A DNA stretch of 64,000 nucleotides from Polyangia bacterium (GTDB taxonomy: Bacteria > Myxococcota_A > Polyangia > Palsa-1104 > JAEUJZ01), in assembly GCA_044222245.1 (NCBI GenBank), contig JBGANQ010000012.1, positions 11,844 through 75,843 on the forward strand, in the 5' to 3' direction. A program made the translations under genes and the position numbers. Every line of letters begins with the position of its first letter. Position 1 is the stretch's first letter. Positions 19,267-54,316 of the stretch are shown piece by piece. A model generated the notes under the pieces. It did no database searches, was not told the DNA's origin, and saw only the letters and a program-made list of their open reading frames with translations.

Positions 19267-19268
19267 CT
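19262..19268. repeat. Left copy of the 7-bp direct repeat TGCGGCT at the kinase-gene breakpoint
   Basis: The context gttcTGCGGCTaaatg is confirmed by the track translation ..DQDVLRLNVTIERKP. Identical heptamers occur at 25782-25788 and 32739-32745. Confidence 0.8.
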
Positions 19269-19390
19269 AAATGTAACGATCGAGAGAAAACCCTGAGATC
19301 ACGTTCCGCGGCGGGGCAAAGTGCATGCAAATCACGGCGTAGGAACTTTGTTGCGAGCGGGCCGGCGGCCAGCGAAAAGGTCTGCGATGG

Positions 19391-19718
19391 CTAGCGTGAG
19401 GATCGCGCGACGAACGCGACCATCGCGACGTTGAGGAGCGGGTAGGCCAGCGCGGAGGCGAAGTCGGTGGTGTTGACGAGGTTGAGGGTCACGCGCAGCG
19501 GCTGCCCCTGCGGGCTGTTGGGGTCTCCGAGCAGGCTCGCGACCTCGGCCACCGAGCGCGCCAGCTCGAAGCGCAGGATCAATCTCTGCAGCGCCGCCAG
19601 AGGCAGGGCCTGGCTGCGCGCACCCTGGACGCCCATCAGCGCGCCGAGAATCAGGGCAGCAGCGCGGCGAGCAGGACGAGCCCGGCCGGGCTCCACAGCG
19701 GCGTGGATTGTCGGGGCA
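19391..19718 (-). pseudogene. Small membrane-protein gene with an apparent frame break
   Basis: ATG 19718 behind GGAG encodes MPRQSTPLWSPAGLVLLAALLP, then hits TGA. The track ORF 19391..19696 continues in another frame with ..LILGALMGVQG...LAYPLLNVAMVAFVARSSR. Together the two pieces read as one TM-containing protein. Confidence 0.35.
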
Positions 19719-19743
19719 TGGGGGCTCCGTGGGGTCGCAGACT

Positions 19744-20808
19744 TTAGGGCGACAGGACCTCGACCGCCGCTCCAGTGGCCACCACGAGCTGGGTGGCACT
19801 GACTGCCAGGCCGCGCGGCGTGCCGCTAAGGGCAGTCCGCCCAAGGACCCGGAACGTGTCGAGCTGCACCTTGACCAGCTGCGGCGAAGGGCTGCTGCCG
19901 ACTACGTAGGCGGTGGTCCCGGTGGCCGCGACGTGCACCGGTATCACGCCCAGGGCGGCGGCCGAGATGCTGCGCACGATGGGGCTGGTCGCCGGGTTGT
20001 TATCCAGGCGGGTCAAGTCAATGGCCGCCATGCCGTCGGGGTGAGCGGCGACGAGCAGGCTCTGCCCGGGGACGACGGCGCTCTGCACGGCGAAGTTTGC
20101 CGGGGCGGCGCTGCCAGGCGAGCTGAGCACGCGGCTGCTGCCGCTCACCAGCGAGACGCGGTCCAGCGTCGCCCCGGTCGCCATATTGAGCACTGTGATG
20201 CCGTAGGTGTTGCCATCGAAATCGGTCGCCACGTAGGCCCGGGTGCCGTCATCGCTCAGGGTCACATCGGGCTGGCCGGTGCCGAGGTCGCGGGTGAAGC
20301 TCCGGGTGAGCGTAGCGCCGGTGAGCGAGCCGGCGGTGAGCAGCCCCGTGCCACCGGAGACCACGAAACGGCCGCCGCCCGTTGCGATGCCCGAGAAGGG
20401 GCCGACCGGGACGCGCAGGGCGGTCGCGGCGAAGCTAGGGCTTGTCGGGGTGGCGAACGACAGGACATTCAGCGAGCCACTGCCGCCCTGGTTGGAGAAG
20501 TCGGGCCGCGCGCCCGGCGCTACCGCGTCCAGCACGTACACAGTGCTCCCCGCGACCGCGACATCGTGCGCGCGAATCGTATAGGAGACCGCGCTCCCGG
20601 TCTTGAGGTCCAGGACCCCAAGCGAGCTGCCGCGCGCGATATACGCCGTGGAGCCGCTGAGCGCCACGTTGGTGGCGCCCGGAAAGCTGTACGTGCTGGT
20701 AAGCGCCGAAGTGATGTCATCGACGTAGTCGGGCGCAGAGGGATCCGTGGCGGAGCCGCAGCCAAGAACCGGCAGCATGAGGAAACCGAGCCATTTCAAC
20801 GTTTGCAT
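19744..20808 (-). CDS. Lipoprotein, beta-propeller-like repeats (hypothetical)
   Basis: ATG 20808 lies behind TAGGAGG. The lipobox is LMLPVLGCGS. Repeated beta-strand units are present (TAYIARGSSLGVLDL; TVYVLDA; RAYVATDFDGN; TAYVVGS). Confidence 0.8.
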   Translation of the reverse strand: MQTLKWLGFLMLPVLGCGSATDPSAPDYVDDITSALTSTYSFPGATNVALSGSTAYIARGSSLGVLDLKTGSAVSYTIRAHDVAVAGSTVYVLDAVAPGARPDFSNQGGSGSLNVLSFATPTSPSFAATALRVPVGPFSGIATGGGRFVVSGGTGLLTAGSLTGATLTRSFTRDLGTGQPDVTLSDDGTRAYVATDFDGNTYGITVLNMATGATLDRVSLVSGSSRVLSSPGSAAPANFAVQSAVVPGQSLLVAAHPDGMAAIDLTRLDNNPATSPIVRSISAAALGVIPVHVAATGTTAYVVGSSPSPQLVKVQLDTFRVLGRTALSGTPRGLAVSATQLVVATGAAVEVLSP

Positions 20809-38671: not shown

Positions 38672-41600
38672 CTAGTTGGGAGTATAGGCCTTGCTCGAGG
38701 TGCGCGCCCAGACGCCGCGCCCTTCCTGCCACAGGCGCATCGCCCGGCGCGCCAGCTCGATGCGCTTCTGGGCGCTCAGCTCGTCGTGGAAGACGGTGCT
38801 GACGATGGCGCGGCTCACCTTGTAGCTGCGGCGCAGGCGGTCGCGGTCCTGCGGTCGCAGGACTCCCGGGGAGCTCGGGCTAGCGGTGCCGCTGCCGTGA
38901 CCGAGGTTGAGAGTACCGGGCGAGTTGGCCGACGCGGCGAGCGCCGGGACGAGGAACCCGGGCGAGCTATAGCTCGGACGGCCCTCGGTGGTCAGGTACT
39001 CGGCCTCATCGCTTGTGAGGTAGAAGGTGTTGGTCAGGTCGCGGACGATGCGGCGGACCACCTCGGCCGAGAAAGCGGCGAAGTAGTCCTCGTCGCGGCG
39101 GGCGATCTTCTGGCGGTCCTTGGGGTCGAGCGTCTGGTAAAAGACGTGCAGGTAGTCGACGGCGCTGTCGATGGTGAACCACGGCTCGTCGACCAGGCTC
39201 AGAAGGACGAAGCTGCACTCGGGGCCGAGCATATAAAGGCCGTTCTCGCTCTGCAGGGCGGCGCGCTCCTCGGCGTGGACCTTCTCCAGGGCGAGCACTA
39301 CGTCGCGCTCGGTGATCTTCTGCTCCTCGCGGCGCGAGCTGCGCAGGCGCTCGTCGATGCTCTGGATGATGAGGGCGCCGCAGTGCTGGATCCACGCCGG
39401 GACGCGGAAGGTCTTCTCCAGCAGCACCTGCTCGACCGCCGCCGACTCGAAACGCAGGCCCAGGCGCGTGAACGGCTCGCGCACCATGCGCTCGGCGCTG
39501 GTCTCGTCCAGGGGGCCGAGCATGCGCAGCTTGGCGAAGTTGAGCAGCGGTCCGAACAGATCCCAGCGCGCCTCGACGAGCTCCGCGTGACCGGCGAGGA
39601 TGACCCGGCACACGGCGCCGCCGGCGAGCACCAGCGCCGAGGCCGAGCGCAGCTCCTCGAGCAGCGGCGACTGCCGGCGCTGATCCGGCGGCGTCTGCAG
39701 CCCCTCCAGCACGCCCTCGATGACATCGCGCGGGAAGCCGGTCTGGTGCAGGGCGCTGCGCAGCGCCGCCACCTGCGCCTTGGTGACCGCCGGGCTGCCC
39801 GGCCCGAGCAGGGTCGCCAGCGACTGACCGAGCGCCGAGGCCTCGCGCCACTCGCCCAGCAGGTAGGCCCGCCGCTCGGTGCGCAGGATGGTGTCGATCT
39901 CGTCAAGGACGATGGCCACGCTGTGGTCGGGGTGGCGGCGCGTCCACTGGTCGATGACCGAGCGCAGCGGCGGCAGCACCTCGCCCAGGGCGAAGCCCTG
40001 CTGGGCCTTCTGCGGCTCGATGTCCTCGTACAGCTCGGTGATCATCGCCTTGAGCAGCTCGCGGCTCGTCGGCGCGGTGGTGTAGTCCATGCCGCGCGGG
40101 ATGACGCGGTAGCCCTGCTGCTCCAGCTCGAAGCGCACGCGCTGCAAGAGCGAGGTCTTGCCGATCTTGCGCGGCCCGACGATAAGGAAGTTCTCCTGCC
40201 GCTGGCCGCGGATCTCCTCCAAGAGCGAGCGCCGGCCGTAGAACATCTCCTCGATGAGCTCCTGGTTGGCCAGGCCCATCTTGCTGCGGAACGGCGACAG
40301 CGCGGCGTAGCTGGCGGCGGCGGCCAGGCGGCGGATGAGCTCTTCGACGGGGTTGTCGTGCAGCGCGGCGTGCTGCAGGTCGGCGATGTCGATCGCGGCG
40401 ACGTGGAACAGGTTGCGGCTCCAGTGCAGGACCTCGGCCAAGAGCTCGGGCACCACGACGATCGCCGACAGCGAGGTGTCGCTGATCGTCCCCTCGGTGC
40501 CGGCAAACCCCGCGTCCGGGCGCGGCAGGATCTGCGGCCCCGAGCCGCCGGCGACCATCATCGGCAGCCGACCGCGCAGATCGATCTGCACCTGCTCCAG
40601 CGTCGGCCGATCCGGCTGCCCCGCCGGCAGGTACAGCACCACCCGCTTGAGCCACGGCAGCTGGCGCTTCTCGCGGAAGCGCACCTGCACGCTGCGCATC
40701 GGGATCTGGCCGCCGGCGCGCGCGAGCAGCTCGTCGCGGCCGGTGCCGTCGACCAGATCGAGGCGGAAGTACTTGGCGATCGCCTCGATGAAGCGGTGCT
40801 CGTCCTGGCCGTCCATCCACTTGCGACAGGCGCGCGACAGATCCAAAAACTCCTGCCAGCGCCCCTGCGGCGCCTGCATGCCCGGCCGGTTCCACCCGAG
40901 CACGGTGCGCAGCGGCGCCGAGCTGCCGCCGAGCGCCCGATCAACGGCGGCGGCGTCCCACAGCGGCAGCTGGCGGACCAGGTTGCGGCCGTCGATGGTG
41001 TTGGGCAGCCCGGCCTCGCCCTCGGCGACCCCGAGCAGCGTGCGCAGCCACTCGCGCACAGCCGAGCTGGTGAAGGCGCAGAACAGGCGGTCGCCGCTGA
41101 GGCGCATGGTGCGCAGGATGCCCAGCCGCTTGAGATCGGCCGCCGCCTGGTCGAGCCAGCGCTCGCCGCTGCGCGTCCCCTCGCGGGCCGGGGTCTCCTC
41201 GGCGGTGGGGCGGCCGCGCAGCCGCGGGCGGGTCTGCTTGAGGTAGGTCCAAAGCACGGTGCGGCTGTCCTGCAGGCTGCCGCGGATGCGCACCTTCTTG
41301 AGCCACATGACCTTGGTCAGATCGTCGATGGTGCGCTGGTCCAGGCGCACCCCGGCCGAGGCCACCACCTTGCTCGTCGGCAGGCGGTCCTTGCCCGAGA
41401 TCGAGTACACCGGGGCGTCGACCACCATGCCGGGCCGGACGTCGGCGACATCCAGATCCACCGAGTCGCTGCACAGCGCCGCCAGGTACAGCCGGTGCTG
41501 CAGCGGCAGGGCGCTCCACACCACGGACAGATAGGTGCCCACGCGCGACTCGAAGGCGCTCGCTGACAGCGGCGCCCGGGTGCGCTCGCGCAGCGCCTGC

Positions 41601-44600
41601 TCGACGATCGGCATGCACTCGGCGACCAGCCGCAGGTCGGTGCCGGTCACGTCCATGAGCGCCCGCAGCGCGGTCTGGGTCCCCGAGTGGGTGGTCGCCA
41701 CCGCGGGCGGCGCCCCCTGCGCCGCCGCCCCCGAGCCCTCGCGCAGCAGCAGCAGGCTGGTCAGCGCCTGCTCCAGCTCGTTGCGCATCCGCTCGTCGGT
41801 GCGGTGCACGCTGTAGGGGTCGGCGACGTGGTCCAGGTCGATGAGCTCCAGCGATCGCGCCGCCGCCTCCGAAGCGGCCTGGCTGCTCGACGGGGTGACG
41901 ATGGCCGGCAGGATCAGCGACAGCGCCGCCGCCTGCGGCGACAGGAGCAGCAGCGAGCGGCCGCGGTAGGCCAGGCTCACCCGGGCGCCGAGGATAAGGA
42001 GCTGCCGCTGCTCGTTTTCCTCCAGGCGCGCCTTCTCGCACAGCTCGGGCAGGCCGAGGATGATAAGGCCGCGCGCCTGCGCCCCCGAGGTGGGCAGCGG
42101 CGCCTCACTGACCGCGCGCACCAGGGCGTCGACGGTGTCCAGCCGCTCGGCGTTGGGCAGCCCGAGCACGCCGCCGATGCGCGCCCCGACCTGCTGCACC
42201 AGATCGCGCAGGGTCGGGTTGAGCGCCCGCTGGCTGCCCTGCAGCGGCGCCGAGCTCGCCGGGGCCGAGCGCGCCGCGACGTTGACCATGCGCCAGCCTT
42301 CCAGGGTGTCGATCGGCCGCTCCGGCCAGTCCAGGTTCACCGCGTCGGCGAGCAGCTCGTAGGCGTGGGCGGGGAAGGCAGTGACGATGGCGACCGAGGC
42401 GTGGGCCGACCGCAGAAGGTCCATCAGCTGCTCTTTGCGCTGCTGGAACAGCGTCGGCAAGCGCTCGGCGAAGCTGTCAAACAGGGCGCGCGCCAGCTGG
42501 CGCGACTCGCGGCGGAACTGGCCTTCGATGACCCGCTCGGTGCGCTTGTCGCCGTCGTGGGACAGCTCGATCTCGATGCGGTAGCGCAGGCCGTCGGCGG
42601 CCATCAGCGCCGGGCACTCGACCGCCAGCCCGAGCTCGTGGCCGGGCTCCAGATCCACCGGGTCGGGGTCGAGCGCCCGCGCCCGCACCTCCTTGGGCTC
42701 GACCGAGCGCACGCTCAAAACGACCCCGTGGGCGGTGCGGGCGGCGTCGGCGGCCAGCATCACCGCGTAGCGCAGCACGCGCCGCCCCTCGCTGATGCCG
42801 AGGTCGGAGATGAGGCGCACCTCGAAGTCAGGCTCGGTGCGCAGCCGCGTCGCCTCCTCGACCAGGACCTGCCACCAGACGGTGAGCAGGGCGACCACGG
42901 TGGCCACCGGGCGCACCACCAGCATGCGCGACACGAACGCGCCGGCGTGGCCGAGCGGGGTGGCGCCGCTCAGGCGATCGAGCAGGCGCAGCCGCAGGGC
43001 GTTGCGCCGCTGATCGAGCTGCGCCGCCAGCTCGTCCAGGCTGTGGGCGACCTGCGCCTTGTTGGTCTTGCGATCGAGCTCCTGCAGCGCCTGCGACAGG
43101 AACTGCTGCTCGGCGAGGTAGGTCGCCTCGTCGATAAAGGCCCAGGCCTCGTCGCGGTAGCGGTAGGACAGGTGCTGCTCGCTGAGGCTCCTGTGGGCGC
43201 GCAGGGCCGCCAGGGCCTTGTCGACCATCGCCGGCTGCAGCGAGGCCTGCAGCTCGGCGAGGTTGGTCATGTCAAACAGCCGCAGCACGCCCTGGACCAT
43301 CTCCAGGAGCGCCCACGAGTCGGGGGTGATGCCGTCCGAGCTGACCGGCAGGGCGCAGCGCGCCAGCTCGTCGGCCAGGCGCTCGTAGTAGATCTGGTCA
43401 AAGCCGTTCTCGATGGCGACCTCGAACAGCCAGTCGATCTCGCCTTCGAGGGTGTTGGAGACGCCGCTCAAGGTGTCGTCGTTGTCCTCGGCGCCGATCG
43501 TCGGCAGGCGCGGCCCCCAGCGCCGCGACACGCCGGTAAGGAACGAGCGCGCCTCGGTGTCGGGCAGGATCTCGGGCTGGCACATGGTCTCGATGACCGC
43601 GTGCGGCATATGCAGGCGCACCCGCCCGAGGTCGCCGGCGAGGAAGGCGCGCTCCCACGACAGCGCCGAGCGCAAAAGCAGCGCCATGTTGGTGAGCAAG
43701 AATCGGCTCGGCTGCGTCGGCGACACCGCCTCGAGCACCGCGACCACGCTGCGGAAGAACACCGGCTCGGCCTGATCGAAAAGCTTGGCCCGGTCCAGGC
43801 GCTGCAGGTGGCGCAGGAACAGGGCGGCGACGCTGTCGATGGCGAACGGCCACTCGGCCGAGCGGGTGTCGTGCAGGATGATCGCCGGCAGCCAGGTGGG
43901 CAGCTCCTCGATGTGCTCGGGCCGGACGTGGTTCTCGACGCACTGCAGCAGCTCGCCGCGGATGCTCAGCGGCTCGTCGCAGACGTGCACCAGGCGCGAG
44001 AGCAGCTCGCGCCCGAGCTTGGCCTGCTGGGCGTCGGCGCCGCTGCCCGCGCCGCCCAGGGCAATGGGCACCAGGGCCTCGAACAGCGGCAGCAGCAGGA
44101 TGCGCGCCCGCGGCGGTCGCGGCAGCGGCCAGGCGGCGACGTCGAACAGGTCCGAGCGCGACGGCGAGCGGGCGCTGGCGTCGAGCCCCACCTGGGCGTC
44201 GGTCTGAAGCAGCAGCTTGGTCAGGTGAAGCACGCTGGCCACCGCCGGGGTGCCGCGCTCGCCGGTCGGGCGCGGCGTGCCCACCGGAGTGTTGGTGCGC
44301 GCCGGCGGCGGGCGCGACGAGGCGCCCGGCTTGACCTCGGCCGAGGTCATGCCCGGGGTGACGATTGAGCCGGCGATGCGGCCCTCGCGCGCCGAGCGCA
44401 AGAGCTCGCGCAGGGCGACGGCGCGGATGTGCGGGCCCTGGCCGCGCATCGCCGCCCGCAGCACGTTGGCGCGCGAGCCGGCGGCGCGGCTGCCAAGCTC
44501 CAGCAGCCGCTCGATGCTCTGCAGGTGCTCGTCCTGCGGGTGGGCCTCCCAGCTGGTCAGCACGCCCCCCTGGAGCAGGATGAGCAGCCGGTAGCCGCCC

Positions 44601-46060
44601 TCGACCAGCGGCCGGCACATCATGCGCTGCGGGGTGCCGCCGGCGGCCAGCCGCACCAGCTCCTGGCCATCGCGGCGGAAGTCGACGGCGAGGATGTGCA
44701 CCTGCTCATCCTCGGTGCCGAGCGCCAGGCACGGCACGCCGAAGACCCCCTCGGGGATGAAGCACAGCGCCGAGATGCCCTTGGGGAACAGGTGCTGCGA
44801 CATCAGGCGCAGCGACTCACCCTCGATGCCGAACACCTGGACCTGGCCGGTGCTGGTGCCCACCGCGGCCAGGGTGGCGCCATCGGCGAGCGCGGCGCAG
44901 CTGGTCGCCGCCGGCGCCGGCACCGACAGCGACTTGTAGCCCGGCCGGCGCAGCGAGACTCGCGCCGAGGTGATGTGCAGCGAGCCGGCGCTGTTGGAGA
45001 TGACCGCCAAAAGCTCGGCCGGCAGGACGTGCGCGCGCACGCGCAGGTGGCCGCCCTGGGTGTCCACGGCGAGCACGCTCGGCCGGCCGCGCTCGCCGGT
45101 GCCCGGCACGCGCAGGATCAGCGTCTCGCGGGTCGGTGCTGAGCGGCGGGCCGACTCGGCGGACTCGGCAATTCCCGGCGAGCTGGGCGGGATGGCGCTC
45201 ACCGCGTCGTCGCTGGGGCTTAAGTGCAGGTCGTAGCCGATCGGCTCGGCGCCGCTGCCGCCGCAGCGCGCCTCGCCGCGCAGCACCGTCTGGCCGCTGC
45301 CGAGCAGGCTGTAGACGAGCAGCTTGGTATCGCCCGCCTCGTCGATGCCGACGATGACGGCCGGCAGGAAGCTGTCGCCCTCCTGCCACAGCCGGCGGAC
45401 TTCGATAAAGCGCACGGTGCCGGGGACCTGAACCTCCGGCCCGGCGGAGGTCGGCTGCCACGGCCAGTCGAGCGGCGGCGGGCCGGTATCGATCTCGCGG
45501 CCCGAGCGCAGAGGTCCGTGCTGGGCGGGCTCGATGGGCTCGACGCGCAAGGCGCCGCGGCGGCCGATGCCGACGATCCAGCTGCGGCTTGGCCACTCCA
45601 GCGTCGCGGTGGTGATGCCGTCGCCGGTGGGCACCAGCGGATCGATCGCCGTGGCGACCAGATCCAGGCGCTCCAGCTCCATCGAGAAGCGGTCCAGGCG
45701 CAGCTCTTCGATAAGGCCGATGGCGCGCAGGACCCGCATCACCACTTCGTTGTTCTCGTCGAGCTTGGGCCGGTCGCTCTCGGGCACTCCCTCGATGTGG
45801 GCCAGGCGCGCCGCCGCTTCGGTGGTCAGCGAGGTGGCGTAGTCGCGCGCCCGCAGGCTGCGGACGTTGAGCAAGCGCTTGAGCTCGGGCGGCGGCTGGT
45901 CGATCGTCGGATCGCTGCTCGGCAGGCTGCCGTCGACGGCGTTGGCCGGCGAGTGCTGCCAGTACTGCTCGAACAGCCGGCGCGAGATGCGGTCGATCTG
46001 GTGGCGGACCAGGCGCGGCGCGCCCAGGTACACCTCGACTAGCTCCGCCAGGACGGTGCG
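38672..46060 (-). CDS. Giant protein, distal ~2,460 codons: WD-like beta region, ~1,400-aa helical region, C-terminal P-loop ATPase (archaeal-ATPase/ORC-like type) + C-terminal tail
   Basis: This is track ORF 38672..46033, and the same frame stays open and protein-like upstream (..RTVLAELVEVYLGAPRLV). The Walker A is FYGRRSLLEEIRGQRQENFLIVGPRKIGKTSLL (P-loop 40154-40177). The Walker B is HSVAIVLDEID (about 39890-39925). WD-like strands are present (TSTGQVQVFGIEG; EDEQVHILAV). I recognise no effector domain. Confidence 0.8.
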   Translation of the reverse strand, partial: RTVLAELVEVYLGAPRLVRHQIDRISRRLFEQYWQHSPANAVDGSLPSSDPTIDQPPPELKRLLNVRSLRARDYATSLTTEAAARLAHIEGVPESDRPKLDENNEVVMRVLRAIGLIEELRLDRFSMELERLDLVATAIDPLVPTGDGITTATLEWPSRSWIVGIGRRGALRVEPIEPAQHGPLRSGREIDTGPPPLDWPWQPTSAGPEVQVPGTVRFIEVRRLWQEGDSFLPAVIVGIDEAGDTKLLVYSLLGSGQTVLRGEARCGGSGAEPIGYDLHLSPSDDAVSAIPPSSPGIAESAESARRSAPTRETLILRVPGTGERGRPSVLAVDTQGGHLRVRAHVLPAELLAVISNSAGSLHITSARVSLRRPGYKSLSVPAPAATSCAALADGATLAAVGTSTGQVQVFGIEGESLRLMSQHLFPKGISALCFIPEGVFGVPCLALGTEDEQVHILAVDFRRDGQELVRLAAGGTPQRMMCRPLVEGGYRLLILLQGGVLTSWEAHPQDEHLQSIERLLELGSRAAGSRANVLRAAMRGQGPHIRAVALRELLRSAREGRIAGSIVTPGMTSAEVKPGASSRPPPARTNTPVGTPRPTGERGTPAVASVLHLTKLLLQTDAQVGLDASARSPSRSDLFDVAAWPLPRPPRARILLLPLFEALVPIALGGAGSGADAQQAKLGRELLSRLVHVCDEPLSIRGELLQCVENHVRPEHIEELPTWLPAIILHDTRSAEWPFAIDSVAALFLRHLQRLDRAKLFDQAEPVFFRSVVAVLEAVSPTQPSRFLLTNMALLLRSALSWERAFLAGDLGRVRLHMPHAVIETMCQPEILPDTEARSFLTGVSRRWGPRLPTIGAEDNDDTLSGVSNTLEGEIDWLFEVAIENGFDQIYYERLADELARCALPVSSDGITPDSWALLEMVQGVLRLFDMTNLAELQASLQPAMVDKALAALRAHRSLSEQHLSYRYRDEAWAFIDEATYLAEQQFLSQALQELDRKTNKAQVAHSLDELAAQLDQRRNALRLRLLDRLSGATPLGHAGAFVSRMLVVRPVATVVALLTVWWQVLVEEATRLRTEPDFEVRLISDLGISEGRRVLRYAVMLAADAARTAHGVVLSVRSVEPKEVRARALDPDPVDLEPGHELGLAVECPALMAADGLRYRIEIELSHDGDKRTERVIEGQFRRESRQLARALFDSFAERLPTLFQQRKEQLMDLLRSAHASVAIVTAFPAHAYELLADAVNLDWPERPIDTLEGWRMVNVAARSAPASSAPLQGSQRALNPTLRDLVQQVGARIGGVLGLPNAERLDTVDALVRAVSEAPLPTSGAQARGLIILGLPELCEKARLEENEQRQLLILGARVSLAYRGRSLLLLSPQAAALSLILPAIVTPSSSQAASEAAARSLELIDLDHVADPYSVHRTDERMRNELEQALTSLLLLREGSGAAAQGAPPAVATTHSGTQTALRALMDVTGTDLRLVAECMPIVEQALRERTRAPLSASAFESRVGTYLSVVWSALPLQHRLYLAALCSDSVDLDVADVRPGMVVDAPVYSISGKDRLPTSKVVASAGVRLDQRTIDDLTKVMWLKKVRIRGSLQDSRTVLWTYLKQTRPRLRGRPTAEETPAREGTRSGERWLDQAAADLKRLGILRTMRLSGDRLFCAFTSSAVREWLRTLLGVAEGEAGLPNTIDGRNLVRQLPLWDAAAVDRALGGSSAPLRTVLGWNRPGMQAPQGRWQEFLDLSRACRKWMDGQDEHRFIEAIAKYFRLDLVDGTGRDELLARAGGQIPMRSVQVRFREKRQLPWLKRVVLYLPAGQPDRPTLEQVQIDLRGRLPMMVAGGSGPQILPRPDAGFAGTEGTISDTSLSAIVVVPELLAEVLHWSRNLFHVAAIDIADLQHAALHDNPVEELIRRLAAAASYAALSPFRSKMGLANQELIEEMFYGRRSLLEEIRGQRQENFLIVGPRKIGKTSLLQRVRFELEQQGYRVIPRGMDYTTAPTSRELLKAMITELYEDIEPQKAQQGFALGEVLPPLRSVIDQWTRRHPDHSVAIVLDEIDTILRTERRAYLLGEWREASALGQSLATLLGPGSPAVTKAQVAALRSALHQTGFPRDVIEGVLEGLQTPPDQRRQSPLLEELRSASALVLAGGAVCRVILAGHAELVEARWDLFGPLLNFAKLRMLGPLDETSAERMVREPFTRLGLRFESAAVEQVLLEKTFRVPAWIQHCGALIIQSIDERLRSSRREEQKITERDVVLALEKVHAEERAALQSENGLYMLGPECSFVLLSLVDEPWFTIDSAVDYLHVFYQTLDPKDRQKIARRDEDYFAAFSAEVVRRIVRDLTNTFYLTSDEAEYLTTEGRPSYSSPGFLVPALAASANSPGTLNLGHGSGTASPSSPGVLRPQDRDRLRRSYKVSRAIVSTVFHDELSAQKRIELARRAMRLWQEGRGVWARTSSKAYTPN

Positions 46061-46061
46061 C

Positions 46062-47525
46062 GCCCTGCATCTGCTTGACGGTGAGCAGCGGCAGCGGTCC
46101 GGTAGGGGTGGCGCGCGGCTCGTCGCGGGCGAGCTGCGGCAGGTGCAGCAGCAGGAAGTGCTCGAAGATCACCACCGCCTCGCGCTGCGAGCGCTCGGGC
46201 AGCATGTGCCAGCCCGGCTGCCCGGAGGTAAACCAGCGCACCAGATCCACGACCGCCTGCGAGGCGGGACCGGGGCTCTCCAGCACGCGGCTTAGCAGGT
46301 ACAGCTGCACCGCCGCATAGGCGTCGTGGCGCGGCGGGGCCAGGGCGAGCAGCCGCTCGGTCGGCGACGGCCCCGGCGGCGGCCCGGCGGCCGCCTGCGC
46401 CTGACCCAGGGACTGATACAGCTTGCGGCAGCGCTGGTCGAGCAGCGCGGTGTCGGTCAGCTCATAGATGCGCATGCCGCCGTCGATGCCGCCGAGCACC
46501 AGGTCGATGCGGCCGCTGTTCTCGATGTCGGCCAGGGTCATCGCCGAGAACAGGAACCCGGCGTCCATCCGCCACATCACCCCGGTCTGCGCGGTGTCCA
46601 TCGCGAACACGTAGCCAAACGAGGTGCCGCCGACGAGCAGGCCGGCGCTGGGCGACGGCGCCTGCATGCCCAGCTTGCGCGCCGGGGCGTAGGCCAGGCA
46701 GACAAAGCGCCACTGCGGAAACAGCAGCGAGCGCAGGCGGCCGTCGCGGCCGATGCGCTGCAGGCCGCCGCGGGCGTAGGCGACGACCAGCTCGTCCTCG
46801 CACAGGACCAGGTCGGTCACCTCGCCGGGCAGGAACGACACCTTGGAGAAGTCGCTGCTGGCGTCCGGCCGCCGGCCGAGGCGGTCGTCGAGGATCTCGA
46901 CCCACAGCCGCGAGTCCTCGAAGCGGCCGCGCAGCACCGGCACCCGGCCGGGCTCGCTGCTGTCGCCGATAAGGCGGATCTCGCCAAAGCCCGGCGTGCC
47001 GGTGCGGCGGTGCTCGAGCTCGGAGACGTCCCACTGCGTGCCGTCGCAGGTCAGCTTGAGCTCGCGATACACGGCGCCGCCCTCGCTCTCCTCGACCGAG
47101 GTGACGATCGCCTCCTGGCGGCTGAACACGCCGAAGCTGGAGAACGACACCCCGAGGAGCTTGCCGCGGTAGCGATGGGTGCCGATCGTCCAGCTGGCCA
47201 CCGGGCCGCCCTCGGCCTCGCGCAGGGCGAGGCGCGGGGTGTGCACGATGTGATCGCTGTCGATGACCAGCATCTCGTTTTTGCCGTCGCCGTCCAGATC
47301 GGTGACGCGGATGAGCAGGAGGCCCCGGCCAAAGCGCAGGTTGGTGCGCAACAGCGCCGGGCGCGTCCGCAGCCGACACAGGCGGACGAGCTCGCGGGCC
47401 GCCTCGTCGGGGTCCGCCGGCAGCGGAGACTGCGCGAGCTTCACGAGTTCCCGATACTCCTGGACCTCGGGGGAAGCCGGTCGAGCATCGATTCGCCGAA
47501 CGCGGGGCTCAGACATAGGGTTCAT
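46062..47525 (-). CDS. Giant protein, proximal ~488 codons (FG-GAP/beta-propeller-like), separated from the rest by a +1 frame break near 46055-46067
   Basis: This is the first part of track ORF 44817..47525: VTDLDGDGKNEMLVIDSD and LADIENSGRIDLVLGGIDGGMRIYEL (FG-GAP-like). Composition is protein-like up to ..PLLTVKQMQGA. Beyond that the frame is Arg/Pro/Ala/Gly filler lying over the other frame. Confidence 0.75.
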
Positions 47526-47659
47526 TCTACCAGCGGGTCTGAGAGCCGCGGCGCCCGCACTGCGCGCAAGGTCAAATCTGTCGCGGGTTTGGCTCGCGCG
47601 CCATTCGCTGCGCGGCCGGGAAGTGACAGGGAAGGCCCGCTCCTGTAGGCTGCCGCTTG

Positions 47660-47920
47660 ATGAGTGACCATCCTTCTCGCTATACGGGTTCTGATCTGCC
47701 GGGCCATGTGCGCGGCATCATCGAGGCGGCCATCCCCGGCGCGCAGGCCGAAGTGGCCGGCGGCGGCGGTCACTACACGATCAAGGTGACGGCGGCGGCG
47801 TTTGCCGGCAAGTCGCTGATCGAGCAGCAGCGGATGGTCTACAGCGCCATCACCGAGCTCATGCGCGGCGATGACGCGCCGATCCACGCGGTGGACAAGC
47901 TCACCACCCGGTCGGCCTGA
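47660..47920 (+). CDS. BolA-family protein
   Basis: 86 aa. GGGHYTIKVTAAAFAGKSLIEQQRMVYSAI..APIHAVDKLTT matches the BolA H(F/Y)..V.S..F.G...(Q/H)R.VY...IHA pattern. Confidence 0.85.
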   Translation: MSDHPSRYTGSDLPGHVRGIIEAAIPGAQAEVAGGGGHYTIKVTAAAFAGKSLIEQQRMVYSAITELMRGDDAPIHAVDKLTTRSA

Positions 47921-47933
47921 GGCGGTGGTGGGT

Positions 47934-48488
47934 ATGGGCGACTGGCGATGGCGGCTGGTCCTGGGCCTTGGGCTGGCGCTGGCCGCCTGTCGGCGCGAGC
48001 CGACGCTGCTCATCGACGCCCGCGTCCAGCCCGACCTGAGCCCGGCGGCCATCGCGCCGGCCGCCCAGCCTGCCGCGCCCGCCGCGGCGCCGCCGCCGAC
48101 CCCGGTGGCGGCCGAGCCAGGTGCCGACTCCACCGACGCCGCCGTCGAGATCTCGGGCGAGCTTGAGCTGCCCCCCGGCGCTCCGCCCAAAGAGCGGCTG
48201 ATGGTCTACGTCACCCTGCGCGACTGCTTAAACGACGCCTCGCCGCTGCTGCGCCGCCTGCCGGCCAGCGATAACCGCAGCTACTTCGTCGCCGTCATCG
48301 CCCCGCGCGGCAGCTCCCTGTCGGTCTGCGCCGCCGCCGAGCCGGGACCGGGCAAGCCCGCCCACCTGTACGGCCGCGCCACCAAGACCCTGCAGCTCCA
48401 GCAGACCGCCGACCAGGCCTTCAGCGCCGTCGATATCACCCTGGCGGAGGGGCCACCGCGCCGCTTTGCCAGCCAGCTCGCCCGCTGA
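47934..48488 (+). CDS. Hypothetical lipoprotein
   Basis: I trimmed to ATG 47934: MGDWRWRLVLGLGLALAAC (lipobox), then an Ala/Pro linker and a globular C-terminal part. Confidence 0.65.
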   Translation: MGDWRWRLVLGLGLALAACRREPTLLIDARVQPDLSPAAIAPAAQPAAPAAAPPPTPVAAEPGADSTDAAVEISGELELPPGAPPKERLMVYVTLRDCLNDASPLLRRLPASDNRSYFVAVIAPRGSSLSVCAAAEPGPGKPAHLYGRATKTLQLQQTADQAFSAVDITLAEGPPRRFASQLAR

Positions 48489-48601: not shown

Positions 48602-49585
48602 CTAGGGCTTGCGCGGCGCCTTCTCGCCCGGCTCGGGCTTGCGCGGCACCTTCTCGCCAAGCTCTGACTTAAGCACGGTGAACTCGACGTCGACCGGCCG
48701 CAGCTCGTAGGCGATGCCCGGCGGCAGCTTGACGACCTGGGGCCGCTTGACGTACTTGGTCCCCGGCGGCTTGCGCTCCTCGGCCGAGGTGTCGAGCATC
48801 AGCTCGGGCACGTCGGCCAGCTTGTCCAGGCCCTGCCCGCGCAGGACGATGGTCGCGGTCTCGGGGTGGAGCTTGACGTTCTGCGGCGAGCCGCTGGTTC
48901 GGATCGGCACGTTGGCGAAGGTCTTCTCGACCAGCTCGACCACCACCGCGGCGTCGATCTTGGGCGGCGGGTCATCGACGAACGAGGCGAACTTGGGCAG
49001 CGCCGCCAGCTCCACCGGCACGGTGACGGTGTCGCGAATTTCGCTGACTTTCAGCGGCTTGGACAGCACGTTGTGCATGTTCTCGACGACGTTCTGGGCG
49101 CCGCGCACGCGCACGCTGCGCGGCGTCGCCGTCGCCTGGCGGAAGCGATAGCCCTCGGGCGGCTCGCCCTCCATGGTCAGCTGCACCGGGATGAGGGCGG
49201 TCACCTCGGGCTCGTAGTGCAGGTAGACGCTGGGCGGCACGTAGCTCTCGATGCGCAGCCCGGGGGGGACCTTGACCATCTCGGGGGTGAAGCGCAGATC
49301 GCCCTCGCGCAGGGTCGACAGGTCCAGGTGGATCGGCTCTAGCGGCGTCTCGCCGGCGCGGTTGATGCGGCCCCACGGCCCGCGCACCACCACCTTGACC
49401 TGGTCGACGCGCGGCTGCGAGACCATCAGGCGGTCGCGCGGCTCGGTGTAGGTGACCTTCACAAACAGCGTGGTGTTGGCCTCGAGCTCGGTGCGGACGA
49501 CGAACACCAGGGTCAGCGCGACCACCAGGGAGATCGCCTTGAGAAACAGGTCCTCGACGAAGATCTTGTAGATGAACTCGCGCAT
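48602..49585 (-). CDS. cdaR: YbbR-domain protein (CdaR-like regulator of diadenylate cyclase)
   Basis: N-terminal TM helix and repeated YbbR-like beta units (VKVVVRGP.., VRVRGAQNVV.., ATIVLRGQG..). It sits immediately downstream of cdaA. The C-terminal codons contain a 30-bp tandem duplication (GEKVPRKPEPGEKAPRKP). Confidence 0.85.
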   Translation of the reverse strand: MREFIYKIFVEDLFLKAISLVVALTLVFVVRTELEANTTLFVKVTYTEPRDRLMVSQPRVDQVKVVVRGPWGRINRAGETPLEPIHLDLSTLREGDLRFTPEMVKVPPGLRIESYVPPSVYLHYEPEVTALIPVQLTMEGEPPEGYRFRQATATPRSVRVRGAQNVVENMHNVLSKPLKVSEIRDTVTVPVELAALPKFASFVDDPPPKIDAAVVVELVEKTFANVPIRTSGSPQNVKLHPETATIVLRGQGLDKLADVPELMLDTSAEERKPPGTKYVKRPQVVKLPPGIAYELRPVDVEFTVLKSELGEKVPRKPEPGEKAPRKP

Positions 49586-49593
49586 GCGGCCCC

Positions 49594-50874
49594 CTACTCT
49601 ACCTTGAGGGTCGGGCGCGCGTCGGTGGGAGCTGGCGGGGCGGCGTGCGGTGCCCCGGCGCCCGGGCTGGTCACCGGATCGTAGCCAGCCCCCGAGTTCA
49701 GCGCGGCCGGATCGGGGCGCTGCGTCTCGGCCGAAGACAGCGGCACGCTCGCCGCGGCCAGCTGCCCGATATTGAGGCGAGCAGTGGGCTCGCTCTTTGG
49801 CTCCACCGGGCTGGCCACCGCCCCTGCCTGCACCGCGGCGCTGTCGACGGGCACAAAGAACGGCTGCGTCTGCATCATGGCTAGCAGCTCGGGCGGCATC
49901 GACAGCGGGACCGGGCGCCGCTGCGGCGTAACCACGGGCGTGCCGGCCGGGGTCGGTGGCGGCGCGGTCGCCGCGGTGCCCGCGCCAAGCGGCACGCCCC
50001 CCAGCGAGATATCACCCGACTTGTTCTCGGGCTTGGCGCTGCGGCTCTGCGGCGGCGCCTTGCCCTTGTTGTTCTTCTTCTTCTGAAACAGCCCGAGCAG
50101 CGCCTTGCGCAGGGTCGCCGCGTCGAGGTCGCGGGCGATGTTGCCGTTAAAGCACAGCGACACGGTGCCGCGCTCCTCGCTGACCACGACGACCACGGCG
50201 TCCGTCTCCTCGGTGACGCCGATCGCCGCGCGGTGCCGGGTGCCGAGCTGCTTGTCGAGCTTGGTGTTGGCCGACAGCGGCAGCACGGCGCCGGCCTGGT
50301 GCACGCGCAGGTTGCGGATGATCACCGCGCCGTCGTGCATGTGGTTGGCGGCCTCGGGGATAAACAGGGTGATGAGCAGCTCCTTGGTCACCTTGGCGTC
50401 CAGCTCGACCCCGACCTCGCCCAGGTGATCGGACAGGTCGGCGTCGCGCTCGATGACGACCAGGGCGCCGATGCGCTGCTTGGCGAGCTCGCCTGCCGCC
50501 TGCACCACCTCTTCGATGACGTAGGTCTCTTCATACTGCCGGCGCATGAACAGGTTCTGGCCGACCTGCATGAGCGCCCGCCGGATGTCCTGCTGGAAGA
50601 TGACGACGAAGAAGATGATGAAGTAGTCGATCAGCTTCTCGAACAGCCACGAGACGGTAATAAGGTCCAGGCGCTTGGCGCAGAAGAACAGCCCGATGAT
50701 AAGGGCCATGCCGGTCATCGTCTGGGCGGCGCGGGTGCCGCGGACCAGCTTGAGGGCCCGGTAGATGATGTAAAAGACGATGAGCACGTCCGCGGCGGTG
50801 GTCACCGCGTCGCGGAAGGTGAAGCTGGTGCCGTTGAGGAACGAGAACACCGGCGTGCCGCTGTCGGGAGTCAT
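49594..50874 (-). CDS. cdaA: Diadenylate cyclase CdaA (3 TM + DAC domain) with ~160-aa Pro/Ala-rich C-terminal extension
   Basis: GALVVIERD, HMHDGAVIIR, LGTRHRAAIGVTEETDAVVVVVSEERGTVSL are DisA_N/DAC signatures. The start overlaps the folP stop (ATGA). Confidence 0.92.
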   Translation of the reverse strand: MTPDSGTPVFSFLNGTSFTFRDAVTTAADVLIVFYIIYRALKLVRGTRAAQTMTGMALIIGLFFCAKRLDLITVSWLFEKLIDYFIIFFVVIFQQDIRRALMQVGQNLFMRRQYEETYVIEEVVQAAGELAKQRIGALVVIERDADLSDHLGEVGVELDAKVTKELLITLFIPEAANHMHDGAVIIRNLRVHQAGAVLPLSANTKLDKQLGTRHRAAIGVTEETDAVVVVVSEERGTVSLCFNGNIARDLDAATLRKALLGLFQKKKNNKGKAPPQSRSAKPENKSGDISLGGVPLGAGTAATAPPPTPAGTPVVTPQRRPVPLSMPPELLAMMQTQPFFVPVDSAAVQAGAVASPVEPKSEPTARLNIGQLAAASVPLSSAETQRPDPAALNSGAGYDPVTSPGAGAPHAAPPAPTDARPTLKVE

Positions 50875-51887
50875 GGCTGCCCCCCAGCGGCGGGCGGGGC
50901 GACCGCGGCCAGCAGCTGCAGCGCCGCGCGGGTCGCCGCGACGTCGTGCACGCGGACGATCGCGGCCCCCTGCTGCGCCGCCAGCACGGCAGCAACCACC
51001 GACGGCAGCAGGCGATCTTCCACTGGCAGCCCGGTGGCTGCCCCGAGCAGCGACTTGCGCGAGGCGCCGATCAGCAGCGGACCGCCCAGGCCGGCGCGCA
51101 GGCGCCCAACCTGCCCCAGCAGTTGCAGGCTCTGGGCCGCCGTCTTGGCAAACCCCAGGCCCGGATCGTAGATGACCCGCGCCCGCAGCCTGGGGTCGGT
51201 GAGCGCACTCACGATGTCAGCCAGCTCCCTGATCAAAGTGTTGCACAGATCCGGGCCATAATCGGTGAGCTGTCGCATCGTCGCCGGAGTGCCGCGGGCA
51301 TGCATCATCACCAGCCCATCAAAGGCCTGCAGCACCTCGGCGATCGCCTGCCGGCTCACCGCGGGGGCGCCGGCCGCGGCCACCGCCGGCTGCAGCAGGT
51401 GCTGCGGGAAGGTGAGGTTGAGCAGTCGGAACCCGGCCTGAGCGGCGCGGCGGGCGGTGAGCAGGTGGCGGGTATCGATCGACAGCACGGCGGCCACCGG
51501 GCGGCGGCTGAGCGCGGCTACGAGCTCGCGCAGCCGCTCCCACTCGGCCTCGGCGGTGAGCAGCTCGGCGCCCGGGCGCGTCGACTCGGCGCCGAGGTCG
51601 ATAAGCTCGGCGCCGGCGGCGATGAGCTCGTCGATCCGCGACAGGGCGCGCGCGCAGTCGCTGTAGCGACCGCCATCGGCAAACGAGTCCGGGGTCAGGT
51701 TGACGATTCCCATGATGGCGCACCGCGCGGCGCTTATGGTCAGCACCTGGCCGTCGCTGCGGCGCAGCTCGATGCGATGCTCGCACGCCGGCCCCCCCCC
51801 CGCCCCAGGTCGGGCACCGGGGGTTGTGACGCCAGCACGAGCATGATCGGCCAGACCCTGCATCGGAGACACCCATAAGCTGTGCAA
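50871..51887 (-). CDS. folP: Dihydropteroate synthase
   Basis: IMGIVNLTPDSFADGGRY, IDLGAESTRPG, SIDT, GFAKT, LIGASRKS. The exact start (51887 or 51863) is uncertain. Confidence 0.92.
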   Translation of the reverse strand: MHSLWVSPMQGLADHARAGVTTPGARPGAGGGPACEHRIELRRSDGQVLTISAARCAIMGIVNLTPDSFADGGRYSDCARALSRIDELIAAGAELIDLGAESTRPGAELLTAEAEWERLRELVAALSRRPVAAVLSIDTRHLLTARRAAQAGFRLLNLTFPQHLLQPAVAAAGAPAVSRQAIAEVLQAFDGLVMMHARGTPATMRQLTDYGPDLCNTLIRELADIVSALTDPRLRARVIYDPGLGFAKTAAQSLQLLGQVGRLRAGLGGPLLIGASRKSLLGAATGLPVEDRLLPSVVAAVLAAQQGAAIVRVHDVAATRAALQLLAAVAPPAAGGQP

Positions 51888-52011
51888 TCTAAGACGAGAT
51901 CGGTACGAAAGAACTTTACCGCACCGCTTGCGGAAAAATCGCGACGATTCTCAGCAGATCGACAGCGCCAGCGCCGACTCCGGCGGGCCGCCCAGGCGAG
52001 CTGGCCGCTGC

Positions 52012-53952
<1,941 letters not shown>

Positions 53953-54316
53953 ATACCTCGTTGGGTAAAAAGTAACCGACCCGACGCCGCTCCCGCCGCC
54001 GCCAGCCCACACCGACCCGTGCCTGCCGTTGCCTGAGTTTGTCTCGCGTCCGATTCTTACTAATGCCTGGCGATGCCTGCCGTTACCAGAATCTAAGCCG
54101 CTTGGACCGAGGTAATATAACGCAAGAGTTTCTGTGGGCGAGTGGGGCGTTGCCATTATTGCATACGGCGACGGAGCGTCAACCCGCCGTCAGCCTCGCA
54201 CGCGCAGGCTGCCGAATCACTTCATGACGCGGCGAAATCTTTATTGTTGGCGCTTTTTGCGTATGGGCGCGCGCAAGCGGGCCGCGGGCCCAGCCGAGGA
54301 TCGGACAGGCAAGCTC

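Follow-up and report, generated by a model that had tools for sequence, protein, structure and literature searches.

A giant protein of about 2,950 residues, in which predicted β-propellers, an α-solenoid and an ear-like β-sandwich precede a C-terminal P-loop NTPase, is encoded in frame-broken form on the minus strand of a 64,000-nt stretch of DNA from a Polyangia bacterium (contig JBGANQ010000012.1; hereafter the window, with positions counted from its first letter). On sequence evidence the NTPase is ORC/Cdc6-related and of the archaeal-ATPase/nSTAND1 type, and on balance we favour the reading that the family to which the protein belongs is soluble and acts as an ATP-switched assembly scaffold, with a core cellular role rather than one in immunity. 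Residues are numbered according to the merged protein, the frame-repaired 2,950-aa sequence that was also used for the database search.

A predicted ORC/Cdc6-related NTPase at the C-terminus

From its N-terminal side the NTPase module consists of a conserved SPF/FYGR lead-in, Walker A, Walker B, an insert, a CRVILAGH strand, the invariant Asn of an LLNF motif, LGPL, a lid and a winged helix (Table 1). The module passes the Pfam cut-off for AAA_22 (PF13401; 31.7 bits against 27), and Walker A and Walker B are invariant both in the family and in the wider clade described below; the NTPase, with its lid and winged helix, is predicted to be catalytically intact. Below cut-off are the matches to AAA_16 in Pfam and to the orc1/cdc6 models TIGR02928 (23.7 against 181.3 bits, E=1.9e-5) and PRK00411 (12.5 against 501 bits).

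Aligned across 17 diverse relatives and the window, the module shows a conserved series of motifs, comprising ISP[YF], FFGR, Walker A (G.R[RK][IV]GK[ST]SLL), Walker B (LLDE.D), the C.FILAG strand, an invariant Asn in SPLYNF, LGPL and a P.liQ helix, followed by a winged-helix-like segment. Searches of the PDB with family-only profiles (the whole protein and residues 1-1062, 1126-1700, 1690-2180 and 2340-2950) gave nothing significant because the diversity of the alignments was low (effective number of sequences, Neff, 1.4-1.7), and only the profile widened with distant relatives gave PDB matches. These are led by 2fna (E=5.8e-16 over ~210 positions), followed by ORC4/Cdc6 (2.8e-8), 2qen (2.6e-7) and TnsC (~4e-4), with Orc1 also among them. 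The chains 2fna and 2qen, labelled in the search only as 'Conserved hypothetical protein' and 'WALKER-TYPE ATPASE', are what we take to be the archetypal PF01637 structures. The LGPL and P.(l/w)iQ motifs, together with an alignment to 2fna that runs through the lid, point at the level of sequence to a lid and winged helix of the type found in signal transduction ATPases with numerous domains (STAND). An earlier note on this DNA, made before any database search, had placed the ATPase in an archaeal-ATPase/ORC-Cdc6-like branch; the matches to 2fna and ORC4/Cdc6 bear this out, and every motif that the note quoted is present on the minus strand, with Walker A lying exactly where it had been put.

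Compared with the archaeal ATPase family, the module shares FFGRE, the unusual Walker A G.RR.GK[ST]S, the Walker B DE.D, the SPL(Y/F) motif and the L.P(L/F) lid motif. The solved chains of that family are, however, stand-alone proteins of ~350 aa, whereas here the module ends a multidomain protein of 2,950 aa and carries the ~65-aa insert, and the link to the archaeal ATPases (PF01637) appears to hold at the superfamily level. With the ORC/Cdc6 AAA+ initiators the module has in common an alignable core followed by a lid and winged helix, but the window scores far below the cut-offs of those families and its N-terminal architecture is wholly different. Among the families named in Pfam, nSTAND1 and ATPase_2 are, by their profiles, the closest relatives of the clade. 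The STAND NTPases are said to go back to Leipe et al., 2004; the nSTAND1/STAND proteins resemble the window protein in the FxGR lead-in, the GxP-type lid motif, the winged helix and the association with superstructure-forming repeats (WD40-like, solenoid). They differ from it in that here the repeats are N-terminal and the NTPase C-terminal, with ~100-140 aa after it and no effector found, and in the slow evolution and housekeeping context of the present gene.

Predicted propellers, solenoid and ear-like sandwich

The N-terminal part is predicted to hold two β-propellers separated by a helical insert. Sub-threshold Pfam matches recur throughout the family (FG-GAP_3, Itfg2 and EML_2 in 15/15 members, BBS2_Mid in 14/15 and the BBS7 propeller in 13/15), and a match to RSE1_2nd reaches 2.5e-7. 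For the FG-GAP repeat (PF13517/PF01839) the window scores 20.1 bits against a cut-off of 26.9, and the best family member has an E-value of 7.5e-5. In the AlphaFold2 (AF2) model of P0001 residues 1-1065 (mean predicted local distance difference test score, pLDDT, of 58) an all-β region of low confidence is followed by a helical insert of ~250 aa, an all-β domain (pLDDT 80-91) and three helices. The all-β domain, propeller 2, gives 951 Foldseek matches at E<=1e-3, all of them propellers, with template modelling (TM) scores up to 0.60; at the top stand BBS9 (TM 0.60), BBS1, BBS7, ITFG2, G-beta, MEP50 and DDB1/SF3B3. No match discriminates between these, and the modelled domain is best described as a generic seven-bladed propeller, WD40-like at the level of fold. 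The recurrent Pfam matches and, for the second propeller, the AF2 and Foldseek results thus agree with the two N-terminal propeller modules claimed previously.

The long middle region had been described as more than 1,000 residues of helical sequence. In the model of residues 1126-2325 (mean pLDDT 62) this description holds for a solenoid of ~430 aa, but the remainder is predicted to be a β-sandwich, an α/β domain and mixed domains. The stretch formed by solenoid and sandwich has its best Foldseek match in INTS7 (E=7.6e-4), and the sandwich itself matches 1gyv, 1gyu and 1iu1 (TM ~0.55, E ~5e-3), with no sequence-level support in Pfam. Between the sandwich and the α/β domain the model places a long helix. 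Residues 1690-2180 do model as an α/β domain; that they represent a degenerate tandem copy of the ATPase and winged helix was rejected at the sequence level (hhalign probability 0.4%). From residue 2007 onward the protein is homologous to Myxococcota relatives of ~2,500 aa (hhalign against P0032, probability 98% over 2007-2780). Conservation mapped along the protein is low in the Pro-rich linker (~1060-1125), which is variable, and the ATPase core is near-invariant.

An apparently single-copy family under purifying selection

The database search returned orthologues that are full-length single-ORF (open reading frame) proteins of 2,802-3,037 aa with 54-96% identity, and the family, which occurs in about 20 species, comprises 17 proteins in that range of identity. 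In a scan of species-representative genomes 24 loci were found, all 24 in metagenome-assembled genomes (MAGs) labelled Polyangia, Myxococcales, Myxococcota or, generically, Deltaproteobacteria/Pseudomonadota, and the family is confined to an uncultured lineage of Polyangia (Myxococcota). Where contigs are unfragmented there is one locus per MAG, and the family appears to be single-copy. Most of the source MAGs come from activated sludge.

Pairwise ratios of non-synonymous to synonymous substitution rates (dN/dS) are 0.09-0.14. A three-taxon comparison with the orthologous locus L002 as the outgroup assigns 185 synonymous and 22 non-synonymous codon changes to the window lineage, and 162 and 27 to the lineage of the intact locus L001. 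These counts suggest strong purifying selection and give no sign of its relaxation on the window copy. Between the window and L002 (P0002) the giant protein is 91-92% identical and the flanking core proteins are 53-93% identical, because of which the giant protein is judged, from sequence comparison, to evolve at least as slowly as housekeeping genes.

A 62-nt deletion breaks the frame in the window

The length of the span 38672-47525, 8,854 nt, leaves a remainder on division by 3, and in the ORF listing the minus strand carries two ORFs that overlap but differ in frame (47525..44817, 902 codons, and 46033..38672, 2,453 codons). What had been read as a single gene of ~2,950 codons is therefore not one ORF in the window. 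With a third-position GC (GC3) of 0.9-0.99, the span is genuinely coding from end to end. In the frame of the first ORF GC3 is 0.89-0.98 down to ~46,300 and then ~0.47, while in the frame of the second it climbs to 0.92-0.99 and is held to the end of the gene, so that the coding frame switches at ~46,060, with no stop codon at the switch point. The first ORF is native to residue ~489 and then runs for 413 codons out of frame, rich in Arg, Pro and Ala, to its stop at 44817; the second is native-looking from its first residue onward.

Alignment of the DNA with the two closest orthologues (L001 and L002; 96% and 91% identical) shows that 62 nt of L001, and 59 nt of L002, have no counterpart in the window. 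In L001 the missing 62 nt encode LAPLDSPPCALHEPDTRLQL, and where the orthologues read KQMQG-LAPLDSPPCALHEPDTRLQL-ARTVLAEL the window joins KQMQG directly to ARTVLAEL. A GGC microhomology (~46062-46064) bounds the deletion, which falls in a variable, indel-tolerant loop that is of low confidence or disordered in the model (P0001 residues 445-486). The same alignment rules out a change of a single nucleotide at 46058, whether as a frameshift or as a slip in sequencing. The likely true start, judging from most orthologues, is the second Met (MSEPRVRR, 47516), and the two ORFs should be treated by genome annotators as one disrupted gene.

That the locus in this genome is a dead gene, a pseudogene without a product of consequence, we regard as quite possible, if on the doubtful side of even. 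The deletion shifts the frame and is unique to the window, all 15 of the 15 full-length orthologous loci being single uninterrupted ORFs of 2,814-3,031 codons, and the product of the first ORF would bear a nonsense tail of 413 residues. Against a dead gene, there is one lesion only, it lies in a disordered loop that tolerates indels, the sequence on either side of it keeps its GC3 and codon structure, and 89% of the lineage-specific substitutions are synonymous, as in the intact sister. Translation could also resume in the second ORF from GTG 46033, preceded at 9 nt by GGAG, and an assembly or consensus artefact may be the origin of the lesion. Since selection on the window copy is not relaxed, the deletion either arose very recently or was introduced by the assembly. 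The deletion-junction allele and a flanking strain-specific 30-mer are both absent from the JGI metagenomes and an exact look-up of the product of the first ORF returned no record, results that are uninformative as to whether the lesion is real or artefactual. The earlier note had named a decaying pseudogene with breaks in the orthologues as the outcome that would overturn its account; the orthologues are instead intact at every full-length locus, and the excess of synonymous over non-synonymous changes on the window lineage (185 to 22) likewise speaks against decay. A scan for promoter and terminator consensus sequences at the 3' end of the gene found nothing.

A clade with the NTPase last

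When 1.84 billion representatives were searched exhaustively with the C-terminal 611 aa, 1,010 proteins matched at E<=1e-3, and 107 at E<=1e-10. In the 73 relatives of 900 aa or more that were listed, the centre of the module lies at a median of 0.81 of the protein length, and beyond 60% of the length in 86% of them, with a median of 134 residues after the module. The published nSTAND1/STAND layout has an N-terminal effector or adaptor, a central NTPase and a C-terminal sensor (Kaur et al., 2021, PMC8195603), and DGR-targeted examples of it have been published as well. The domain order and motifs of the window protein had been accurately described, and the order is real; it had also been presented as the reverse of the usual STAND layout, a reversal that is not peculiar to this protein, given the 86% of relatives that are built alike. 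Apparently the NTPase-last order typifies an undescribed clade of about 1,000 representative clusters, with the switch C-terminal, behind sensor or scaffold domains. The named members are all 'hypothetical', 'AAA family ATPase' or 'ATP-binding protein', and no description of the clade was found in the literature, in which no search aimed at the inverted layout was made.

The front ends of the relatives vary, and many of them are WD40, Reg_prop, Kelch or GAF arrays. They include double WD40 propellers (P0027, P0037 and P0039), Reg_prop, Kelch or SGL propellers (P0029, P0044 and P0058) and, in P0025 and P0057, a second NTPase module in the N-terminal region. In P0101 (2,144 aa, on a 1.4-Mb contig), which illustrates this variety, a starch-synthase-like glycosyltransferase and four GAF domains precede the NTPase module. 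Three relatives (P0029, P0058 and P0101) pass the nSTAND1 cut-off on the homologous module, with 33-40 bits. The ~2,500-aa Myxococcota proteins annotated as 'AAA family ATPase' (P0032/P0167 = MFM7199679.1, P0034, P0064, P0077 and P0085) are likewise giant with a C-terminal ATPase, and have in common with the window protein a C-terminal supermodule of ~800 aa (positions 2007-2780) made up of the winged-helix-like region and the ATPase. Their N-terminal ~1,700 aa, in contrast, show no detectable similarity to it and no Pfam domains, and in P0032 and P0034 the N-terminal region has no recognisable domain. Hidden Markov models of the N-terminal and middle tiles, run against ~150 distant relatives of the ATPase, found no common regions except one WD-like stretch.

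Proposed function and its alternatives

NTPases of the STAND and ORC types serve as switches in apoptosomes, inflammasomes, bacterial Avs/NACHT immunity and the initiation of replication. If the protein behaves as STAND and ORC/Cdc6 proteins do, its C-terminal module would bind and hydrolyse nucleotide and so toggle it between a closed form and an open or oligomeric one, and the propellers and solenoid would bind ligands or partner proteins and thereby gate the switch. The N-terminal two-thirds of the protein, modelled as two propellers split by a helical insert, the ~430-aa solenoid and the ear-like sandwich, would form a protein-interaction scaffold. Because no enzymatic effector domain was found, the output may be assembly itself or the recruitment of a partner in trans. 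Searches of Pfam, NCBIfam and PADLOC, with a check for transmembrane segments, revealed no nuclease, protease, TIR, kinase or transmembrane module, as the earlier note had maintained, and neither a transmembrane segment nor a signal peptide is predicted in the protein. In PADLOC-DB there is no significant match to a defence model (best mad8, E=0.0025 over a 50-aa stretch, and PDC-S01, E=0.05), and the anti-phage match in NCBIfam reaches only E=0.07.

We favour a core cellular role over immunity because of the slow evolution of the protein and its housekeeping context. The gene is convergent with PhzF, the two stop codons lying 19 nt apart, and divergent from BolA; beyond these, one side has glycogen phosphorylase and PGM and the other a ybbR-cdaA-folP-ftsH cluster. 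Housekeeping-like evolution would extend bacterial STAND-like switching beyond immunity and transcription.

Several observations weigh against such a scaffold. The structure models are moderately confident (mean pLDDT 58-62, predicted TM scores of 0.33-0.44, from 13 close sequences), and the window falls below the Pfam cut-offs for both nSTAND1 (PF20703; 22.8 against 27.1 bits) and ATPase_2 (PF01637; 14.1 against 33.2 bits). Oligomerisation is proposed by analogy with the behaviour of the NTPase families, and the housekeeping role is read from rate and context only. In L017, the most divergent orthologue (54% identity, Myxococcota MAG SKYG55), a gene for a 760-aa protein that ends in a calcineurin-like phosphoesterase domain (18375-20657, plus strand) starts ~25-35 nt before the stop codon of the giant gene on the same strand, and is a possible effector or partner at this locus only. 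Finally, two distant relatives lie near a toxin (Ntox16) or toxin-antitoxin genes.

These last observations are also those on which an immune function would draw. The protein could be an inverted-order STAND-type immune or conflict sensor, akin to the Avs, bNACHT and nSTAND1 systems, in which the propellers and solenoid recognise an invader molecule and the NTPase oligomerises and activates an effector in trans or nearby. The nSTAND1-like character of the NTPase, the relatives that exceed the nSTAND1 cut-off, the overlapping downstream Metallophos gene of L017 and the distant relatives that adjoin Ntox16 or toxin-antitoxin genes are all consistent with it, as is the description of nSTAND1 in conflict systems of multicellular bacteria (PMC8195603). 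Yet the defence-model searches gave no PADLOC matches and only the marginal NCBIfam one, and no effector domain was detected. The dN/dS of ~0.1 and an identity as high as that of the housekeeping neighbours, or higher, also speak against it. Each MAG has, moreover, a single locus, set among core genes with neither mobile elements nor a defence island around it, and the regions that would act as sensors are conserved and not hypervariable. We consider an immune sensor unlikely.

A further reading is a protein of the coat, cage or adaptor kind (protocoatomer/BBSome/DDB1-like), with the ATP switch controlling polymerisation on membrane or cargo. Membrane-coat architecture, defined as an N-terminal propeller followed by a solenoid, is reported only in eukaryotes and in bacteria of the Planctomycetes-Verrucomicrobia-Chlamydiae (PVC) group (PMC2799638), and the predicted fold order fits it, yet ~1,400 further residues and the NTPase follow, and the solenoid model is of moderate confidence. 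The predicted folds share with the eukaryotic scaffolds (DDB1/SF3B3/CPSF160; BBS1/2/7/9 of the BBSome; ITFG2; adaptin/INTS7) the order of propellers, helical regions, solenoid and a sandwich closest to the gamma-adaptin/GGA ear (GAE), and the weak matches recur, in Pfam to BBS2, BBS7 and Itfg2 in 13-15 of 15 members and by structure to BBS9, BBS1, BBS7 and ITFG2 among the top propeller matches. These similarities are, however, generic and at the level of fold: hundreds of unrelated propellers score equally, the ear match (E ~5e-3, TM 0.55) concerns a sandwich fold that is widespread, the sequences show no significant homology, no transmembrane or amphipathic membrane-binding element was seen, and none of the eukaryotic scaffolds carries an NTPase module. 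The pairing of propeller and solenoid also arises easily by convergence, according to the authors of the coat definition (PMC2799638). We think a coat-like protein improbable, and the propeller-solenoid-ear front end bears on bacterial precursors as against convergent analogues of eukaryotic coats at the level of fold only.

A bolder form of the assembly-scaffold reading, which we hold to be speculative and rather unlikely, would make the protein a core, vertically inherited mega-scaffold whose C-terminal ORC/STAND-type ATP switch drives a ring- or cage-like oligomer, a non-immune, nucleotide-gated bacterial analogue of coat, adaptor or BBSome-type assemblies. Were it true, the oligomer would display the propellers, the solenoid and the adaptin-ear-like appendage, and the protein would be the founding characterised member of a 'sensor-first, NTPase-last' STAND-like clade of at least 1,000 clusters.

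Equally improbable as a coat is a DNA-associated factor, either an ATPase with winged helix in the manner of ORC/Cdc6 or TnsC, loading on DNA or marking it, or a large ATP-dependent regulator of transcription like MalT/LAL, with the N-terminal scaffold recruiting factors: ORC4, Cdc6, Orc1 and TnsC are among the PDB profile matches, TIGR02928 is matched, and there are several winged-helix-like segments and a conserved basic C-terminal helix, but the TIGR02928 score is far below its cut-off, no recognised helix-turn-helix or DNA-binding Pfam domain was found, the best match is the stand-alone chain 2fna and not ORC, and a winged helix is no sign of DNA binding on its own, since every STAND and ORC module has one as an integral part.

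Table 1. Features of the giant gene and of the predicted merged protein, with window positions
Feature	Merged residues	Position	Strand	Basis or remark
Whole locus, frame-broken orthologue of a ~2,950-aa Polyangia protein family		38672..47516	-	Stop codon 38672-38674
Native part of first ORF	4-489	46059..47516	-	GC3 by frame and translation
Second reading frame	490-2950	38672..46057	-	ORF listing, translation, GC3
Deletion junction CAG/GGC/GCGCACC, shifts reading frame		46055..46067	-	DNA alignment with orthologues
Predicted β-propeller 1, FG-GAP-like, invariant DLDGDG	60-357	46455..47348	-	Sub-threshold Pfam; low-confidence all-β model
Predicted helical insert between propellers, holds variable loop with deletion	359-610	45695..46451	-	Model; variable columns
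Predicted β-propeller 2, seven-bladed, WD40-like	622-994	44543..45661	-	AF2, Foldseek and Pfam
Variable Pro-rich linker	1060-1125	44150..44347	-	Gap fraction 0.6-0.8, low identity
Predicted α-solenoid, about 20 helices (~430 aa)	1139-1563	42836..44110	-	AF2, mostly pLDDT 70-90
Predicted β-sandwich like gamma-adaptin/GGA ear (GAE)	1567-1669	42518..42826	-	pLDDT 80-89
Predicted α/β (Rossmann-like) domain, invariant TAFPAH, without Walker A	1710-1896	41837..42397	-	Model
Predicted helical, winged-helix-like and mixed α/β regions	1904-2324	40553..41815	-	Model, low to moderate confidence
NTPase module	2370-2850	38975..40417	-	Pfam AAA_22, clade alignment, PDB profile matches
Walker A GPRKIGKT		40154-40177	-	500 residues from C-terminus
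Walker B VLDEID		39893-39910	-	
Family-specific ~65-aa insert after Walker B		39689-39883	-	
Ser/Pro/Gly-rich linker and conserved basic C-terminal helix	2857-2900 and 2903-2950	38675..38956	-	

Genomic neighbourhood

A search for conserved neighbours found no neighbour gene common to more than 4/15 loci, in keeping with the earlier statement that the gene has no obvious operon partners between PhzF and BolA. The neighbours common to loci within sub-clades are mutually unrelated (an FG-GAP protein, ApbE, methylmalonyl-CoA mutase, DAG kinase, Hsp70 and a GT2 glycosyltransferase). The conserved housekeeping cluster ftsH-folP-cdaA(DAC)-ybbR just beyond BolA (48602-54156, minus strand) is a syntenic anchor that the window has in common with L001 and L002. 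Relative to the window and L001, L002 carries an insertion of ~3.5 kb between the giant gene and PhzF (L002:14454-17920), which encodes an enzyme of the PEP (phosphoenolpyruvate)-utilising/Rph-like kind and a TetR regulator, and PhzF is also inverted there. An Rfam scan of the whole 64-kb window found no family at gathering score, and no tRNA, rRNA or riboswitch matches.

A 222-codon ORF (47522-48190, minus strand) overlaps the ATG of the giant gene by 4 nt and lies antisense to BolA and to a plus-strand gene of 205 aa; in all likelihood this antisense ORF is a spurious product of high GC rather than an operon partner upstream. At four loci of one sub-clade (L008, L009, L019 and L025) the divergent upstream neighbour, ~130 nt away, encodes a multi-FG-GAP protein of ~733 aa whose N-terminus looks by eye like a signal peptide, and at L003 a TIG/FG-GAP_3 gene (L003:7058-8173) stands two genes away from the giant gene. 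These FG-GAP neighbours may be coincidence, since FG-GAP proteins are common in these genomes.

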